Sequence record: MK629527.1
Strand: one strand, 5' to 3'
Origin: Escherichia phage Lilleven
Length of the DNA stretch: 6,090 bases
The notes below the pieces were generated by a model. It was not told the origin of the DNA. It did not search any database and saw only the letters and a list, made by a program, of their open reading frames with translations. Shown one piece after another: positions 2,199 to 6,090 of the stretch; the stretch's first letter is position 1, and each line of letters starts with the position of its first letter. The position numbers and the translations under genes are program-made.

Positions 2199-2273
2199 AT
2201 GAAAAAAGCACGTCGTTCTCCTAGTCGTCGTAAAGGTGCTCGTCTCTGGTATGTAGGCGGTTCTCAGTTTTAA
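2199..2273 (+). CDS. J: Small basic DNA-binding/packaging protein J
   Basis: Not in the ORF track (24 codons). MKKARRSPSRRKGARLWYVGGSQF; its C-terminus matches the phiX174/G4 J C-terminus (KGARLWYVGG.QF). Length fits the short J of G4/alpha3-type phages. ATG lies 1 nt after the D stop (TAATATG). Confidence 0.8.
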   Translation: MKKARRSPSRRKGARLWYVGGSQF

Positions 2274-2277
2274 TTAT

Positions 2278-2293
2278 GGCCTTCGGGCCTTTT
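2278..2293 (+). terminator. J-F intergenic hairpin (GGCC-UUCG-GGCC) followed by TTTT; weak terminator or mRNA-stability element
   Basis: 4-bp G/C stem 2278-2281/2286-2289 with TTCG tetraloop 2282-2285, then TTTT 2290-2293, immediately upstream of the F SD AAGGA (2294-2298). The position matches the leaky T_J terminator of phiX-like phages. Confidence 0.45.
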
Positions 2294-2304
2294 AAGGATT
2301 ATTA

Positions 2305-3600
2305 ATGTCTAATGTACAAACTTCTGCTGAACGTGAAATTGTTGACCTTTCTCATCTTGCCTTTGACTGTGGCATGATTGGTCGTTTGAAAACTGTTTCA
2401 TGGACTCCTGTTATTGCTGGCGATTCCTTTGAGCTTGATGCTGTTGGTGCTTTGCGTCTTTCTCCTCTGCGTCGTGGTTTAGCCATTGACTCTAAGGTTG
2501 ATTTTTTCACTTTTTATATTCCGCATCGCCATGTTTATGGTGACCAGTGGATTAATTTTATGCGTGATGGTGTTGATGCCACGCCACTTCCTTCCGTTAC
2601 TACTACTCAGTATCCGGATGACGCTGGTTATGTTGGTACTATTGTTCCTAAGAGCAACCGTATTCCTAAGTTTCTGCATCAGTCTTATCTGAATATTTAT
2701 AATAACTATTTCCGTGCGCCGTGGATGCCTGAGCGTACTGAAGCCAATCCTTCAAATTTAGACCGTGATGATTCTCGTTTTGGATTCCGTTGCTGCCATC
2801 TTAAAACTATTTGGTCCGCTCCTCTTCCTCCGGAAACTAAGCTCGCTGAGCAAATGGGCATTGAAAGCAATTCCATTGATATTATGGGTTTGCAGGCCGC
2901 TTATGCGCAGCTTCATACTGAGCAGGAGCGTACTTATTTCATGCAGCGTTATCGTGATGTTATCTCCAGCTTTGGCGGTTCAACCTCCTATGATGCCGAT
3001 AACCGACCGTTGCTTGTTATGCATACCGACTTCTGGGCTTCCGGTTACGATGTTGATGGTACCGACCAATCTTCTCTCGGACAGTTCTCAGGTCGAGTTC
3101 AGCAGACGTTTAAACATTCAGTGCCGCGATTCTTCGTGCCTGAGCATGGTGTCATGATGACTTTGATGCTGGTTCGCTTTCCGCCTATCAGTCCTTTGGA
3201 GCATCATTATCTTGTTGGTCGTAATAATTTGACCTATACCGACCTCGCAGGTGACCCGGCTTTGATTGGTAATTTGCCGCCACGTGAGATTTCTTATCAG
3301 GACCTTTTCCGTGATGGTCGCCCGGGCATTAAGATTAAGGTTGCCGAGTCTATCTGGTATCGTACTCATCCGGATTATATTAACTACAAGTATCATTTAC
3401 TTGAAGGTTTTCCGTTCCTTGATGATGCACCCGGCACGACTAGTGGTGATGATCTTCAGAAGGCTATTCTTATTGACCATAATGACTATAATGCCTGTTT
3501 CCAGTCCCAGCAGTTGCTTCAGTGGAATAATCAGGCTCGTTATAATGTTAATGTTTATCGTCATATTCCTACTGTTCGTGATTCTATTATGACCTCTTGA
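2305..3600 (+). CDS. F: Major capsid protein F
   Basis: 431-aa ORF. Extensive identity to phiX174 F as recalled (PVIAGDSFE.DAVGALRLSPLRRGLAIDS.VD.FTFY.PHRHVYG, QRYRDVISSFGG.TSYDADNRPLLVM, SLGQFSGRVQQT.KHSVPRFFVPEHG, C-terminal TRDSIMTS). SD AAGGA 2294-2298. Confidence 0.95.
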   Translation: MSNVQTSAEREIVDLSHLAFDCGMIGRLKTVSWTPVIAGDSFELDAVGALRLSPLRRGLAIDSKVDFFTFYIPHRHVYGDQWINFMRDGVDATPLPSVTTTQYPDDAGYVGTIVPKSNRIPKFLHQSYLNIYNNYFRAPWMPERTEANPSNLDRDDSRFGFRCCHLKTIWSAPLPPETKLAEQMGIESNSIDIMGLQAAYAQLHTEQERTYFMQRYRDVISSFGGSTSYDADNRPLLVMHTDFWASGYDVDGTDQSSLGQFSGRVQQTFKHSVPRFFVPEHGVMMTLMLVRFPPISPLEHHYLVGRNNLTYTDLAGDPALIGNLPPREISYQDLFRDGRPGIKIKVAESIWYRTHPDYINYKYHLLEGFPFLDDAPGTTSGDDLQKAILIDHNDYNACFQSQQLLQWNNQARYNVNVYRHIPTVRDSIMTS

Positions 3601-3603
3601 TTT

Positions 3604-3621
3604 ATGGGCCTTCGGGCCCAT
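3604..3621 (+). terminator. F-G intergenic hairpin (7-bp stem, UUCG tetraloop); weak terminator or mRNA-stability element
   Basis: ATGGGCC (3604-3610) pairs with GGCCCAT (3615-3621) around TTCG (3611-3614), followed by TTAAGGATTTTTC carrying the G SD. Same module as at J-F. Not followed by a clean T-run, so terminator function is uncertain. Confidence 0.45.
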
Positions 3622-3633
3622 TAAGGATTTTTC

Positions 3634-4197
3634 ATGTATCAAAATTTTGTTACTAAGCACGATACCGCTATTCAGACCTCCCGTTTCTCTGTTACTGACA
3701 GTATCACTCCTGTTGCGCCTACTGGTGATATCCCTATTATCAATACTGGTAATATTACTGCTGAGCGTGCTGTTGTTAGTCTTTATGCTAATTTGGCCGC
3801 TGACACCTCTTCTGATGGTTCTTTTATTGTTGCTATGAAGGTTGATACTTCTCCTGCTGATCCTAACTGTGTTATCTCTGCTGGTGTTAACCTTAGCTTT
3901 GCTGGTACCTCATACCCGATTGTTGGCATTGTTCGTTTTGAGTCTGCTTCTGAACAGCCCACTTCTATTGCTGGTAGTCAGATTGAGCGTTACCCTATTG
4001 AAATGTCTGTGGGCTCTGGTGGTGTCTGTTCTGCTCGTGATTGCGTTACTGTTGATATTCATCCTCGCACCTTTGGCAATAATGTTTTTGTTGGTGTGAT
4101 TTGCTCCAGTGCTAAATGGACCTCCGGCCTTGTGCTTGGTACTATCGCTACGACTCAGGTTATTCATGAGTATCAGGTTCTTCAGCCGCTCAAATAA
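3634..4197 (+). CDS. G: Major spike protein G
   Basis: 187-aa ORF at the position of G. Shares the conserved C-terminal region with phiX174 G (VRFES.S..PT.....YP, KDCVT.D..PRT.GNNV.VG, C-terminal QVI.E...LQPLK). SD AAGGA 3623-3627, 6 nt before ATG. Confidence 0.93.
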
Positions 4198-4332
4198 AAG
4201 GCCACCGCACCCCCGGTTATGTGTCTGCCCAGTGTAGGGTGGACCGAGCCGTACGGAGATACCCGATAAACTAGGAACGTGGAAGGCGTTAGCCGCCTTC
4301 CCTCCTGCTAAGCCCAAAAAGGAGCTTACAAT
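4198..4332 (+). other. G-H intergenic region: G+C-rich structured spacer, candidate complementary-strand (primase-dependent) origin
   Basis: 135-nt untranslated spacer, visibly more G+C-rich than the flanking genes. Contains CCACC/GGTGG complementarity (4202-4206 vs 4238-4242), the palindrome CCGTACGG (4249-4256), an 8-bp hairpin (4281-4301), and the H SD AAGGAG (4319-4324). Assigning it as the minus-strand origin rests on analogy with G4-type origins and an uncertain recollection of older alpha3/St-1 work. Confidence 0.35.
4281..4301 (+). terminator. Hairpin in G-H spacer (possible T_G-like leaky terminator or origin stem-loop)
   Basis: GGAAGGCG (4281-4288), loop TTAGC, CGCCTTCC (4294-4301); perfect 8-bp stem. 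No T-run follows, so function is ambiguous. Confidence 0.35.
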
Positions 4333-5331
4333 ATGTTTGGAAGTATCATTGGAGGCATTGGCTCATCGCTGCTCGGAGGACTTGCTTCCGGCGGTATCTC
4401 CAGCCTCCTTAATAAAATGTTCAGTAAAATGCCAGAACATGCCGCTTCTTCTGCTGGTCTTACTAATGGTCAAGGTACTATTGGTATGGATACTGATGCT
4501 GGTATTCAGTCTGCTATTCAGGGCTCTAATGTTCCTCCTGCTGGTCAATTACCCGCTTCCAACACTTCTGGTGTTATGGCTGATGCTGGTAATATGATTC
4601 GTAATGCTGGCAGAGCTTTGCTTGATGGTACGATTCAGGCCGGTTCTGACAAGGTTAAAGAGGCTCTTATTGATAAGTTGGTTGGAGGTAATGATGCTAA
4701 AGACCGAGGAAAGGCAACCCGTGATTACTTGGCGGCAGCTTTCCCTGAGCTCAACCCATGGGAACGTGCTGGAGCTGGTGCTTCCACTGCCGGGTTAGAA
4801 TCTTCTGCTCAGAATCAACAAAAAGAGATGCTTAAAATGCAACTGGATAACCAGAAAGATATTGCAAAAATGCAGATGGATAACAATTTGCAGATTGCTG
4901 GTATTCAGTCTGCTACATCTCGCCAGAACACGAAGGATTCTGTTTATGCCCAGAATGAGATGCTTCAGTATAATCAACGTGAGTCGCAGGCACGCGTTGC
5001 GTCTATCCTCGCCAACACTGACCTTACGACTAAGCAGGCCACCCATGAAATTATGAGGATGGCTCTTACTCGTGCTCAGGAAACCGGTCAGCATTTGACT
5101 AACTCTCAGATTATGGCTTTGGAGAAAAAGGTTTATGCAGAAATTGGAAAAATTCATCAAGATACTCAAAATTCTCGCTATGGTAGCTCTCAAGTTACTG
5201 CCGCCGCGAAAGACGTTACTAACATGATTACTGACGCTTCTTCAGGTTTTGCTGATTGGGCTTCCCAGCAGTGGAATTCGTTCTTTAAAGATGGTAAGTC
5301 TGACGGTATTCCTCTCAATACTAGAAAATAA
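4333..5331 (+). CDS. H: DNA pilot (minor spike) protein H
   Basis: 332-aa ORF. Gly-rich N-terminus MFGSIIGGIGSSLLGG.. and long collinear matches to phiX174 H (AGIQSAIQGSNVP, TRDYLAAAFPELN.WERAGA, KMQLDNQK.IA.MQ, IAGIQSATSRQNTKD.VYAQNEML.Y.Q.ES.ARVASI, QNSRYGSS). SD AAGGAG 4319-4324. Confidence 0.93.
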   Translation: MFGSIIGGIGSSLLGGLASGGISSLLNKMFSKMPEHAASSAGLTNGQGTIGMDTDAGIQSAIQGSNVPPAGQLPASNTSGVMADAGNMIRNAGRALLDGTIQAGSDKVKEALIDKLVGGNDAKDRGKATRDYLAAAFPELNPWERAGAGASTAGLESSAQNQQKEMLKMQLDNQKDIAKMQMDNNLQIAGIQSATSRQNTKDSVYAQNEMLQYNQRESQARVASILANTDLTTKQATHEIMRMALTRAQETGQHLTNSQIMALEKKVYAEIGKIHQDTQNSRYGSSQVTAAAKDVTNMITDASSGFADWASQQWNSFFKDGKSDGIPLNTRK

Positions 5332-5358
5332 TTGTTGACATTCCTTGAACCTTTATGT

Positions 5359-5396
5359 GACTCTTGCTTCAATAAAACGAAGTAGGAGTCTTTTTT
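5359..5396 (+). terminator. Rho-independent terminator-like hairpin downstream of H; 3' arm contains the SD of the next ORF
   Basis: GACTCTTGCTTC (5359-5370) pairs with GAAGTAGGAGTC (5379-5390): 12 bp including two G.U pairs, loop AATAAAAC, followed by TTTTTT (5391-5396). The 3' arm contains AGGAG (5384-5388) and the ORF ATG follows at 5397. A perfect -35 hexamer TTGACA sits at 5335-5340. Confidence 0.6.
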
Positions 5397-5765
5397 ATGA
5401 AACCCGCTCACCGCCTTTATCATCCTGTGCTTGGTTCTTGGTTGTTTAAGTGTCCCGTTTATATTCGTTATGAGTCCCTTCATCATGGCCGCCTCATTAA
5501 GGTTCGTGCTGTTCGTGACCTTTCTCCGCGTCAGCAGTTGATTGCCAATCCTAAAAATTGCTTTGACGTTGTTATTGCTGAAATTGACGTTACTCACCTT
5601 TCTGTCACTTGGTATGATTTTCAAGCCGAAGAGTATGTCGAGTGTGATTCCGGCACTATGGAGCTTCTTCTTTCTCAGGTAAATTCTGGCGAGGTTATTC
5701 GCTCCTCCGAAGACCTGTTTGTTGATGTTGATGATATGGAATGGCTTTATGAAATTGTGGAGTAA
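5397..5765 (+). CDS. Hypothetical protein (122 aa) in the H-A intergenic region; no recognisable family
   Basis: ORF with SD AGGAG (5384-5388) 8 nt before ATG. Codon usage by eye matches the phage's structural genes (T-ending codons cgt, gtt, ctt, tct, gct, gat). Same strand as all known genes. Translation MKPAHRLYHPVLGSW...DVDDMEWLYEIVE has an acidic C-terminus and no motif I recognise. Confidence 0.5.
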   Translation: MKPAHRLYHPVLGSWLFKCPVYIRYESLHHGRLIKVRAVRDLSPRQQLIANPKNCFDVVIAEIDVTHLSVTWYDFQAEEYVECDSGTMELLLSQVNSGEVIRSSEDLFVDVDDMEWLYEIVE

Positions 5766-5768
5766 GTC

Positions 5769-5858
5769 ATGGAAACTGTTATTGGAAAATTTATTGCTCT
5801 GGCCGTTGTTGCTCTTATGCTGTATGGAATTTCTCGCTTGATTCGGAGGTTCCCGTGA
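5769..5858 (+). CDS. Hypothetical small membrane peptide (29 aa, single predicted transmembrane helix)
   Basis: Not in the ORF track. ATG 5769 is 3 nt after the stop of the preceding ORF and 6 nt after GGAG (5759-5762). METVIGKFIALAVVALMLYGISRLIRRFP: about 17 hydrophobic residues followed by a basic tail. Very short, so chance is not excluded. Confidence 0.3.
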   Translation: METVIGKFIALAVVALMLYGISRLIRRFP

Positions 5859-6031
5859 AATATTTTAGTTTTGTAGATGAACATTATGCTTACTGCCCTG
5901 ATACAAGGATTTTGCACATCACTCGCAGTCGTATTTCTGACCCTCGGTATGAGCGTTGCTTTCTTACTGACGAGGAGCATCTTGCACTTTTGGATTGGTT
6001 GAAAAATTATCCAACTTTCATTAATTCTTGA
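5855..6031 (+). CDS. Hypothetical protein (58 aa), GTG start overlapping the upstream stop (GTGA)
   Basis: Not in the ORF track. GTG 5855 overlaps the TGA of the 29-codon ORF, with GGAGG (5845-5849) 5 nt upstream. Translation (M)KYFSFVDEHYAYCPDTRILHITRSRISDPRYERCFLTDEEHLALLDWLKNYPTFINS; T-ending codon bias like the rest of the genome. Stop TGA 6029-6031 overlaps the -35 hexamer of the promoter before A. Confidence 0.35.
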   Translation: MKYFSFVDEHYAYCPDTRILHITRSRISDPRYERCFLTDEEHLALLDWLKNYPTFINS

Positions 6032-6057
6032 CAGACCTTTAAAATACCCTCTATATT
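6028..6057 (+). promoter_or_regulatory. Candidate sigma70 promoter for gene A (P_A)
   Basis: TTGACA (6028-6033), 18-nt spacer, TATATT (6052-6057): consensus -35 and near-consensus -10. Located about 35-60 nt upstream of the gene A ATG if the window is circular (position 6090 joins position 1). Confidence 0.55.
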
Positions 6058-6087
6058 GCCCTCATAGTTTCACTACGAGGGCTTTTT
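6058..6087 (+). terminator. Terminator-like hairpin plus T5 between the P_A -10 and the A start codon (T_H-like)
   Basis: GCCCTC (6058-6063) pairs with GAGGGC (6077-6082), plus inner TAG/CTA pairs (6065-6067 vs 6073-6075), then TTTTT (6083-6087). The 3' arm contains GAGGG, the likely SD for A. The 5' arm starts right after the -10, so P_A-initiated transcripts would probably lack it. Confidence 0.5.
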
Positions 6088-6090
6088 CGC

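Follow-up and report, generated by a model that had tools for sequence, protein, structure and literature searches.

The window analysed here, a 6090-nt stretch of DNA, is the complete genome of an alpha3-like microvirus (Alphatrevirus, 95–96% identical to St-1 and phiK) and carries two UUCG-capped hairpins, one in the spacer between genes J and F and the other in the spacer between F and G. These hairpins are probably, by analogy, the alpha3-lineage intercistronic terminators of the phiX174 type, with the J-F hairpin corresponding to T_J and the F-G hairpin being a copy of it in the T_F slot. The feature is therefore real but largely ordinary, since the J-F element is the T_J counterpart and the F-G element a lineage-specific copy; what is mildly new is that the T_F slot appears to be occupied by a copy of T_J, together with a hint from one genome, NC28, of concerted evolution of the two copies.

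Both spacers displayed the same order of elements, namely the stop codon of the upstream gene, a G/C stem with a C(UUCG)G loop, UAAGGA and an ATG 6 nt further on (Table 1). A preliminary description of this genome had called the two spacers near-copies, and a repeat search of the genome bore this out, with an ungapped match of 31 nt at 87% identity (2278–2308 versus 3607–3637). It had also placed the module ahead of F and G, described as the two most abundant capsid proteins. As putative terminators, however, the hairpins are more aptly said to follow J and F, and the statement on abundance is loose, as F, G and J are each present in 60 copies per virion (phiX174 literature). The window gpF shares 98.8% identity with St-1 gpF. 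At each of the late-gene junctions in the window (J/F, F/G and G/H) a hairpin is followed by a Shine-Dalgarno sequence (SD), with a canonical terminator after H. The G-H hairpin is also part of a G4-type complementary-strand origin cassette, recognised by homology to the G4 origin region. PHROG search gave no match for the H-A ORFs, which carry no annotation.

Table 1 Features of the late-gene junctions in the 6090-nt window
Feature	Coordinates	Strand	Details
Gene J ORF	2199–2273	+	Identified as J by alignment with annotated St-1, phiK and alpha3
Gene J stop codon, TAA	2271–2273	+	4 nt 5′ of J-F hairpin stem
J-F spacer, TTATGGCCTTCGGGCCTTTTAAGGATTATTA	2274–2304 (31 nt)	+	F ATG at 2305
Repeat copy 1	2274–2307	+	Whole J-F module from stop to F ATG; repeat search, pattern search
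J-F hairpin, GGCC(UUCG)GGCC	2278–2289	+	4-bp G/C stem, C(UUCG)G tetraloop, −7.5 kcal/mol
U4 run 3′ of J-F stem	2290–2293	+	Last U is first base of SD UAAGGA
SD of gene F, UAAGGA	2293–2298	+	AAGGA 2294–2298, 6 nt before ATG 2305
Gene F, major capsid protein	2305–3600	+	431 aa; hairpin module on either side
Gene F stop codon, TGA	3598–3600	+	3 nt 5′ of F-G hairpin stem
F-G spacer, TTTATGGGCCTTCGGGCCCATTAAGGATTTTTC	3601–3633 (33 nt)	+	G ATG at 3634
Repeat copy 2	3602–3636	+	Whole F-G module up to G ATG; repeat search, pattern search
F-G hairpin, AUGGGCC(UUCG)GGCCCAU	3604–3621	+	7 bp (5 G/C + 2 A-U), C(UUCG)G tetraloop, −12.8 kcal/mol
SD of gene G, UAAGGA	3622–3627	+	AAGGA 3623–3627, 6 nt before ATG 3634
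G-H spacer hairpin, GGAAGGCG(UUAGC)CGCCUUCC	4281–4301	+	Fold z = −3.9; candidate T_G equivalent
Canonical intrinsic terminator 3′ of gene H	5359–5396	+	12-bp stem, then U6; strong end of series

Each hairpin has a U-N-C-G loop closed by a C-G pair. Only two CTTCGG hexamers occur on the plus strand of the 6090-nt genome, one per hairpin, and both fall within 64 nt of spacer, which for two randomly placed sites has a probability of ~ 1e-4. Folding of the F-G hairpin gave a z-score of −2.3; the local J-F fold was no more stable than shuffles (z = −0.55), and its 4-bp stem is the shortest in the family, level with that of one other genome (L043). Published tetraloop melting data show UUCG to be more stable than other loops. 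In ViennaRNA with Turner 2004 parameters, UUCG had no advantage over UUUG, GAAA or UUUU in the hairpin stem, so the strict conservation of the loop (C(UUCG)G is invariant in alignment A1) is explained only by the experimental tetraloop data. With DNA parameters, the hairpins in viral single-stranded DNA folded at −4.2 (J-F) and −7.8 kcal/mol (F-G). An Rfam search of the whole window (E ≤ 1) returned no match at either spacer; its sole result, a sub-threshold tombusvirus element at 4813–4878, was dismissed as a chance match.

Comparison with relatives, for which the preliminary description had named loss of the module or uncompensated stem changes as grounds for abandoning it, gave no such grounds: a J-F hairpin was present in all 30 Bullavirinae genomes examined, and stem sequences differed among relatives with compensatory changes. 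The J-F loop was CUUCGG in 25 of the 30 genomes, C(CRCG)G in three, UACG in one (L044) and of another kind in one; UACG, itself a member of the UNCG family, was the sole loop variant with the same architecture. At the F-G junction, CUUCGG was found in 16/16 alpha3-like genomes. A pairing test gave 84% of cells paired versus 72% in shuffles, and the covariation score (0.327, versus 0.130 in shuffles) was matched by none of 500 shuffles. One stem position was C-G in 11 rows, G-C in 10 and unpaired in none, and a G-C pair has become A-U in the St-1 stem. RNAalifold consensus folds recovered this core hairpin alone. Among alpha3-like phages alone, only 23–24% of the four-fold degenerate sites of genes F and G were invariant. 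Selection for pairing and for an UNCG-type loop has thus kept the hairpins conserved, although covariation cannot tell a role in RNA from one in single-stranded DNA, as the mRNA sense and the packaged DNA sense are the same. A search for further alpha3-like relatives gave one locus in a metagenome scan with protein F and, in IMG/VR, six loci, then 20 with a profile.

In the phiX174 J-F spacer (taaTTGCAGGGGCTTCGGCCCCTTACTTGAGGATAAATTatg, with T_J at 969–984), the elements follow one another as they do in the window. The window hairpin lies on the sense strand in the slot between the J stop and the F ribosome binding site (RBS), and its G/C stem with CUUCGG loop is homologous across genera; judged by position and homology, it is orthologous to phiX174 T_J. 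As for the second copy, a 23-nt pattern, GGCCTTCGGGCCNNTTAAGGATT, had two matches in the genome, one in each module. The similarity extends past functionally forced positions, as the two copies agree exactly in the 5′ flank TTATG, in loop and closing pair and in spacing, and the spread of the second copy is restricted: it was found only in alpha3-like phages (16/16), while the phiX174-like, G4-like and L042 lineages have unrelated long F-G spacers. We infer that the F-G module arose from the J-F module by duplication, the direction being assigned by parsimony. No remnant of a CUUCGG hairpin was detected in the F-G spacers of phiX174-like and G4-like phages; a CTTCGG in the F-G spacer of PJNS002 was rejected as a module remnant, being part of a long hairpin arm. 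Alpha3-like phages, in turn, do not have the long phiX174/G4 spacer between F and G, and carry a G4-type complementary-strand origin in G-H instead. Cassettes for replication origins and for terminators have evidently moved around between intergenic slots in microviruses.

One genome bears on the later history of the two copies. Throughout J and F, NC28 groups with the WA13 clade, but a ~ 40-nt patch covering its J-F spacer is alpha3-clade-like, and the G-C to C-G flip of its J-F hairpin recurs exactly in its F-G hairpin, whose flanks are still WA13-like. The stem type at the flipped position was equal in both copies in 16/16 alpha3-like genomes, NC28 included. Large-scale recombination was rejected as the source of the alpha3-like J-F spacer of NC28, both sides of which are WA13-like. 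This single genome gives a hint that the two copies may evolve in concert. We consider it unlikely, however, that the modules are a paralogous pair homogenised by intragenomic gene conversion, with the spacer acting as a portable junction cassette exchanged independently of flanking genes; such conversion would proceed by template switching between hairpins in rolling-circle or complementary-strand synthesis.

Both spacers contain a purine-rich SD within the 5–9 nt range before the start codon, complementary to the 16S 3′ end, and UAAGGA is unpaired in the consensus folds. The SD of relatives was AAGGA or GAGGA, with the exception of L042, which has GGA only, and the distance from SD to ATG was 6–8 nt in alpha3-like relatives and 5–7 nt in other genera. 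With this degree of variation in sequence and in spacing, the proposed ‘fixed-strength’ ribosome binding site did not hold up as a conserved property.

Neither hairpin is followed by at least five U in the 8 nt 3′ of its stem: there are four in J-F and three in F-G, and phiX174 T_J has three. Our terminator scan, which requires a stem of at least 5 bp (F-G lies above this with 7 bp and J-F below it with 4 bp), missed both hairpins as well as phiX174 T_J, T_F and T_G, finding only T_H in phiX174. Given the short U-tracts and the failure of the scan to find even T_J, the likeness claimed is to a weak terminator and not to the canonical class; at F-G, where the stem is followed by UAAGGAUU, termination may be very weak or absent. 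The phiX174 terminators T_J, T_F and T_G are Rho-independent and weak, blocking 20–40% of transcription, with 68% read-through at T_J at 37 °C. Mutagenesis of the kind suggested in the preliminary description already exists for phiX174 T_J, as the 1983 work reportedly used J-F mutants. Saturation mutagenesis of phiX174 (2026) found only 14.6% of terminator point mutations to be detrimental, a small share which implies a small selective effect per site in laboratory conditions. According to the account of Hayashi et al. 1983 given in PMC3335065, the longest-lived phiX174 transcripts are those that end at T_J, and disruption of the T_J structure speeds their decay; a paper on the J-F region of phiX174 and G4 has its role in mRNA stability as its declared subject. 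Within these accounts, 3′ ends at the J-F hairpin and faster decay on its disruption are known for phiX174 and G4 only.

By analogy with these phages, late rightward polycistronic transcripts would start at promoters upstream of B and D, and the C(UUCG)G stems would fold quickly behind RNA polymerase. A minority of polymerases would stop at a hairpin, because the U-run is short and imperfect, leaving nested mRNAs whose abundance would fall stepwise from D and J to F, then G, then H. Terminated or 3′-trimmed mRNA would end in a stable tetraloop hairpin, which would block 3′-to-5′ exonucleases and make the upstream message longer-lived. In read-through transcripts, the hairpin would end 1–4 nt before an unpaired UAAGGA, and the downstream gene would be translated from its own strong RBS. 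We infer from the phiX174 case that both hairpins would act in termination and in stabilisation in the window phage, and the earlier idea of a transcript 3′ end or decay barrier joined to an RBS agrees, by this analogy, with what T_J, the orthologue, is known to do. That stop, hairpin, SD and ATG are packed so tightly is a matter of genome compression and not the mark of a special coupled device.

It is conceivable, albeit unlikely, that polymerase does not stop at the hairpins and that they act as a decay barrier only, protecting the upstream message and creating differential stability within the polycistronic mRNA, with 3′ ends made by RNase E-type cleavage in the downstream A/U-rich stretch or by 3′ exonuclease trimming to the hairpin. 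The weak U-tracts and the unmatched terminator pattern, above all at F-G with its tail, point in this direction, as do one model fitted to phiX174 RNA-seq, which puts termination strength near zero even for T_J, and the emphasis that experiments have placed on T_J as a stabiliser; a short stem with an extra-stable tetraloop would also suit an exonuclease block. Against it stand the measured 20–40% drops in transcription at the Rho-independent T_J, T_F and T_G of phiX174 and the UUUU directly 3′ of the window J-F stem. Protection from decay is in any case compatible with the terminator explanation, the sole difference being how the 3′ end arises. A service to the downstream RBS, whether as SD insulation, as a standby platform or as an F-G coupling clamp fixing F:G output, seems improbable. 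The hairpins do end 1–4 nt before the SD and begin 3–4 nt after the stop in both spacers, the SD and its spacing belong to the repeated unit, and single-sequence folds showed a weak outer helix between the upstream gene end and AAGG. With 12 alpha3-like sequences per spacer, however, RNAalifold recovered the core hairpin without any conserved outer helix that takes in the SD, and sequestration of the SD by such a helix (clamp or translational coupling) was dropped as the main explanation. Between genera, moreover, the distance from hairpin to SD ranges over 1–7 nt and that from SD to ATG over 5–8 nt, the gene G RBS of phiX174 and G4 has no such hairpin immediately upstream, and the documented effect of the orthologue T_J is on mRNA, not translation.

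Because the viral plus strand has the sense of the mRNA, the hairpins can also form in viral single-stranded DNA, and they might act at that level instead of in RNA, for instance in cleavage by A/A*, in priming or in packaging or condensation. The distant relative L042 has CAACTTGATATA, the phiX origin core, beside its J-F hairpin, and other long spacers of these phages hold DNA replication signals. We nevertheless judge a role in DNA to be highly improbable: the conserved loop is UNCG-type (UUCG, with UACG in L044), and by tetraloop thermodynamics the UNCG motif is special for RNA, not DNA; the G-H cassette already accounts for the complementary-strand origin of the lineage; and the origin-like CAACTTG is absent from both window spacers. 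Alterations of the phiX174 J-F region, furthermore, act on mRNA stability. That the two hairpins are unrelated and resemble one another only through a shared need for a G/C stem and an SD is scarcely credible. The units are short (~ 33 nt), and likeness in the SD and ATG is functionally forced, but GGCCTTCGGGCCNNTTAAGGATT had no match in 200 dinucleotide-preserving shuffles even with three mismatches allowed, the agreement includes the TTATG flank, loop, closing pair and spacing, both copies are kept in 16/16 alpha3-like genomes, and the stem type matches between them in every one of these, NC28 among them.

The twin hairpins leave the current understanding of microvirus gene expression unchanged. 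Read as terminators, they allow alpha3-like spacers to be labelled T_J and T_J-derived T_F in annotation, completing a phiX174-style promoter and terminator map for the genus. The post-F terminator slot would then have been filled in unrelated ways, in this lineage with nothing more than an UNCG hairpin, in phiX174 and G4 with a hairpin that is fused to a DNA replication signal. The 33-nt unit could also be of use in phage engineering, as a compact natural part combining a leaky terminator with an RBS.

Several known systems can be set beside the two hairpins. Like a canonical Rho-independent terminator, of which that at 5359–5396 is an example, both are G/C-containing sense-strand stem-loops after a stop codon; unlike it, they are not followed by at least five U in 8 nt and have short stems (4–7 bp), and they are expected to leak by design. 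With the UNCG hairpins known from intrinsic terminators and from between the cistrons of bacteria and phages (Tuerk et al. 1988; Cheong et al. 1990) they share the C-G closing pair, the UUCG loop and the intercistronic position, C(UUCG)G/UNCG being a structural motif class and not a functional family, membership of which is by itself silent on termination. The T_F of phiX174 and G4 occupies the same slot as the window F-G hairpin, after F and before G, and presumably the same role as second step of the terminator series, but the two have no sequence relationship: phiX174-like and G4-like F-G spacers are 92–136 nt long and contain a long A/T-looped hairpin overlapping the PriA site/complementary-strand origin, plus a second small hairpin, whereas those of alpha3-like phages are 33–37 nt long and contain the T_J module copy. 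The window J-F hairpin, for its part, shares its slot with phiX174 T_J (Hayashi, Hayashi and Muller 1983; Logel and Jaschke 2020). The window stem has 4 bp and differs in sequence from that of T_J (a compensated C-G/G-C flip), the stem is followed by UUUU in the window and UUACUU in phiX174, and the distance from hairpin to the SD purine run is 4 nt in the window and 5 nt in phiX174, counted from the 5-bp GGGGC/GCCCC core. Both carry the C(UUCG)G loop on a stem of G/C pairs (GGGGCUUCGGCCCC for phiX174 T_J, GGCCUUCGGGCC for the window) and have a similarly poor U-run and the stop-hairpin-SD-ATG order.

The window (6090 nt) was found to represent the entire genome of an alpha3-like microvirus (Microviridae, Bullavirinae, genus Alphatrevirus), linearised so that gene A comes first, with 95% identity to St-1 over its full length. 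In the J-F-G region, identity was 96% to both St-1 and phiK and 88% to alpha3. Genes were assigned using ORF positions and alignment with annotated relatives. The window F protein displayed higher identity to F of phiX174 (~ 71–72%) than to WA13-clade F of its own genus (~ 66%), and sequence comparison points to a mosaic history of this capsid gene within Alphatrevirus. Gene F also contains a 22-nt inverted repeat (86% complementary) between its first codons (2311–2332) and a segment 764 nt downstream (3097–3118). Within gene A, positions 244–273 (CAACTTGATAATAGTAACACTATAGACCAC) share 28 of 30 bases with the viral-strand origin of phiX174, a 30-mer (CAACTTGATATTAATAACACTATAGACCAC).

Coordinates of genes, spacers and other features in the window
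Feature	Position	Description
Gene A	1–1485	
Gene D	1745–2197	
Gene J	2199–2273	
J-F spacer	2274–2304	TTAT-GGCC-TTCG-GGCC-TTTT-AAGGA-TTATTA, then ATG
Gene F	2305–3600	
F-G spacer	3601–3633	TTT-ATGGGCC-TTCG-GGCCCAT-T-AAGGA-TTTTTC, then ATG
Gene G	3634–4197	
Strong hairpin	4281–4301	End of G-H spacer
Gene H	4333–5331	
Canonical terminator	5359–5390	After H, start of H-A region; followed by U6 (to 5396)
Unannotated ORF	5397–5765	122 aa, GGAG upstream
Unannotated ORF	5769–5858	
Unannotated ORF	5855–6031	

Both spacer sequences quoted in the preliminary description were present in the window, and its view of them as near-copies was borne out by a repeat search, which returned a 31-nt direct repeat with 87% identity (2278–2308 and 3607–3637). 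A 23-nt pattern of stem, loop and Shine-Dalgarno (SD) sequence occurred at these two sites only and had no match in 200 shuffled sequences, even with up to three mismatches allowed. The hexamer CTTCGG was seen just twice on the plus strand of the genome, once per spacer, the probability of both copies falling by chance within the combined 64 nt of the two spacers being ~ 1e-4. Predicted hairpins had 4 bp (−7.5 kcal/mol) in J-F and 7 bp (−12.8 kcal/mol) in F-G. The J-F region alone folded no better than shuffled sequence (z = −0.55), its stem being the joint-shortest in the family together with that of L043, another alpha3-like genome. Compared to phiK (GGGCC...GGCCCC), one G is missing from the 5′ arm of the window J-F hairpin (2278–2293) and UU replaces CC after the 3′ arm, resulting in a 4-bp stem but a better U-run. 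These differences could represent genuine tuning or, in a G/C hairpin, an artefact of sequencing compression.

Both spacers were extracted from 30 distinct Bullavirinae genomes, including 16 alpha3-like ones (the window, St-1, phiK, alpha3, ID21, ID32, NC35, WA13, WA45, NC28, ID62, four IMG/VR or metagenome genomes and L043), with the others being G4-like, phiX174-like or unclassified. All 30 had a G/C-rich hairpin downstream of the J stop codon and ahead of the F ribosome-binding site (RBS). Its loop and closing pair were CUUCGG in 25 genomes (GGGGCUUCGGCCCC in phiX174), while the remainder carried GUGGGAC(CGCG or CACG)GUCCCAC (three genomes: G4, at 2555–2599, WA2 and Lilleto), GGGGGC(UACG)GCCCCC (one relative, L044) or GGGGG(CUUGU)CCCCC (one relative, L042). 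The F-G copy was found in 16/16 alpha3-like genomes but was missing from all remaining lineages among the 30, where the F-G spacer was 85–136 nt long and unrelated in sequence. The CRCG hairpin of G4, WA2 and Lilleto occupies the same place as the UUCG hairpin elsewhere; CNNG loops with a C-G closing pair match a motif called a stable DNA tetraloop in the title of one reference.

The twin hairpins are a genuine and conserved feature that is under selection. In a loop-centred alignment of 21 distinct hairpin sequences, standard pairs filled 84% of cells (72% in shuffles), and the covariation score of 0.327, versus 0.130, was reached by none of 500 shuffles. Shifting the partner column by one reduced pairing to 65–67%. 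For the pair adjoining the closing pair, 11 rows had C-G and 10 had G-C; for the next pair outward, 18 had G-C and three had C-G, with no row unpaired at either. In St-1, a G-C pair of its nearest relatives is replaced by A-U, both bases having changed. No alpha3-like genome deviated from the six bases CUUCGG in either spacer; by comparison, the fraction of invariant four-fold degenerate sites amounted to only 23–24% in genes F and G, and to 54% in gene J (11 complete alpha3-like genomes). Disruption of the stem without compensation was limited to shortening from 5 to 4 bp, in J-F of the window and of L043. RNAalifold was run for each spacer on 12 alpha3-like sequences, extended by 17 nt into the coding sequence at both ends. 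It predicted the core hairpin alone, with no conserved structure joining it to the SD, and SD-to-start spacing varied between 5 and 8 nt among relatives. A fixed strength of the RBS was not supported as a conserved property; the RBS within the module is a strong SD of ordinary type.

The current model of phiX174 includes four Rho-independent terminators, T_J, T_F, T_G and T_H, located in the J-F, F-G, G-H and H-A spacers, respectively. By RNA-seq, transcription is blocked by 20–40% at each of T_J, T_F and T_G and by ~ 70% at T_H; quantitative PCR gave 68% read-through of T_J at 37 °C. A 2026 saturation mutagenesis study of phiX174 treated all four as hairpin-dependent and Rho-independent, with only 14.6% of point mutations in the terminators being detrimental. 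Shorter phiX174 transcripts are described as decaying faster once T_J structure is disrupted (Hayashi, Hayashi and Muller 1983, summarised by PMC3335065). Judged by position, sequence and conservation, the window J-F hairpin is the counterpart of T_J, and the original suggestion of a transcript 3′ end or decay barrier agrees with the established function of this phiX174 orthologue. As the F-G hairpin occupies the slot of T_F and has the same build, the same two activities, termination and mRNA stabilisation, are the best inference for it as well, with its U-poorer tail (UAAGGAUU) being an extra caveat for termination. Neither window hairpin passed a simple terminator pattern scan, which in phiX174 detected T_H only and missed T_J, T_F and T_G. 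Uridines made up 4/8 positions after the stem in J-F and 3/8 in F-G, no worse than phiX174 T_J (3/8). The G-H hairpin and the post-H terminator make the rest of the window consistent with a graded series of stops.

None of the three unannotated ORFs in the H-A region (5332–6090) had a PHROG match. This region is mosaic, with 73–80% identity to phiK versus 94–95% to alpha3. At its end (6028–6090), a stable hairpin (6058–6082, z = −4.8) comes directly after a near-consensus promoter (TTGACA-18-TATATT, 11/12), the same promoter-then-terminator layout as phiX174 pA-T_H; the 3′ arm of this hairpin, GAGGG, is likely the SD of gene A.

Covariation does not separate an RNA from a DNA role of the hairpin, because viral strand and mRNA have the same sense. 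Action in RNA is favoured by the UNCG loop with its C-G closing pair, the sole conservative variant being UACG, and by the fact that experiments on the orthologue concern mRNA. The exceptional stability of UUCG tetraloops is known from published melting studies, a literature said to include Cheong et al. 1990, and the stability argument rests on these studies, since ViennaRNA energies did not single UUCG out. An additional role in DNA is possible: an extra-origin protein A/A* cleavage site has been reported directly 3′ of phiX174 T_J, and an origin core adjoins the hairpin of L042, although this motif is absent from the spacers of the window. In L042 (IMGVR_UViG_3300005306_000004, a divergent bullavirus), the phiX174 origin core CAACTTGATATA lies in the J-F spacer immediately 5′ of the hairpin (region ~ 360–390), an arrangement which recalls the cleavage site beside T_J; this is the only relative with a J-F loop neither UNCG nor CRCG.

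The two copies within each alpha3-like genome agreed in stem type at the variable position, GGGCC in the alpha3/phiK/St-1 clade and GGGGC in the WA13 clade, which might by itself reflect just two clades. A lead towards concerted evolution of the copies is hinted at by one case, NC28. Its J and F genes are WA13-like (88% identity to WA13 versus 70–78% to phiK), and its J-F spacer (3054–3085) carries an alpha3-clade-like patch over ~ 40 nt. The NC28 F-G hairpin (within 4370–4406) differs from that of WA13 by exactly two compensating transversions, matching its own J-F hairpin, so that the same G-C to C-G flip is seen in both. This pattern fits either patch recombination with subsequent gene conversion between the copies or two independent compensated changes.

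The phiX174-like group, the G4-like group and the divergent L042 have long F-G spacers, and parsimony consequently favours duplication of the J-F module into F-G, which would have taken place in the alpha3-like ancestor. No statement on twin hairpins of alpha3-like phages was found in the searchable literature, which does not cover the original genome papers. The F-G spacer of G4 holds an annotated primer RNA and the complementary-strand origin, and in that of phiX174, T_F overlaps the PriA site. Over its full length, the window G-H spacer (4198–4332, 135 nt) aligned with the origin region in the G4 F-G spacer, column identity averaging 86% in a four-sequence alignment. The origin cassette of alpha3-like phages is thus placed one slot further downstream. 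In these phages the F-G slot holds a T_J-type module alone, whereas in G4 it holds the origin.
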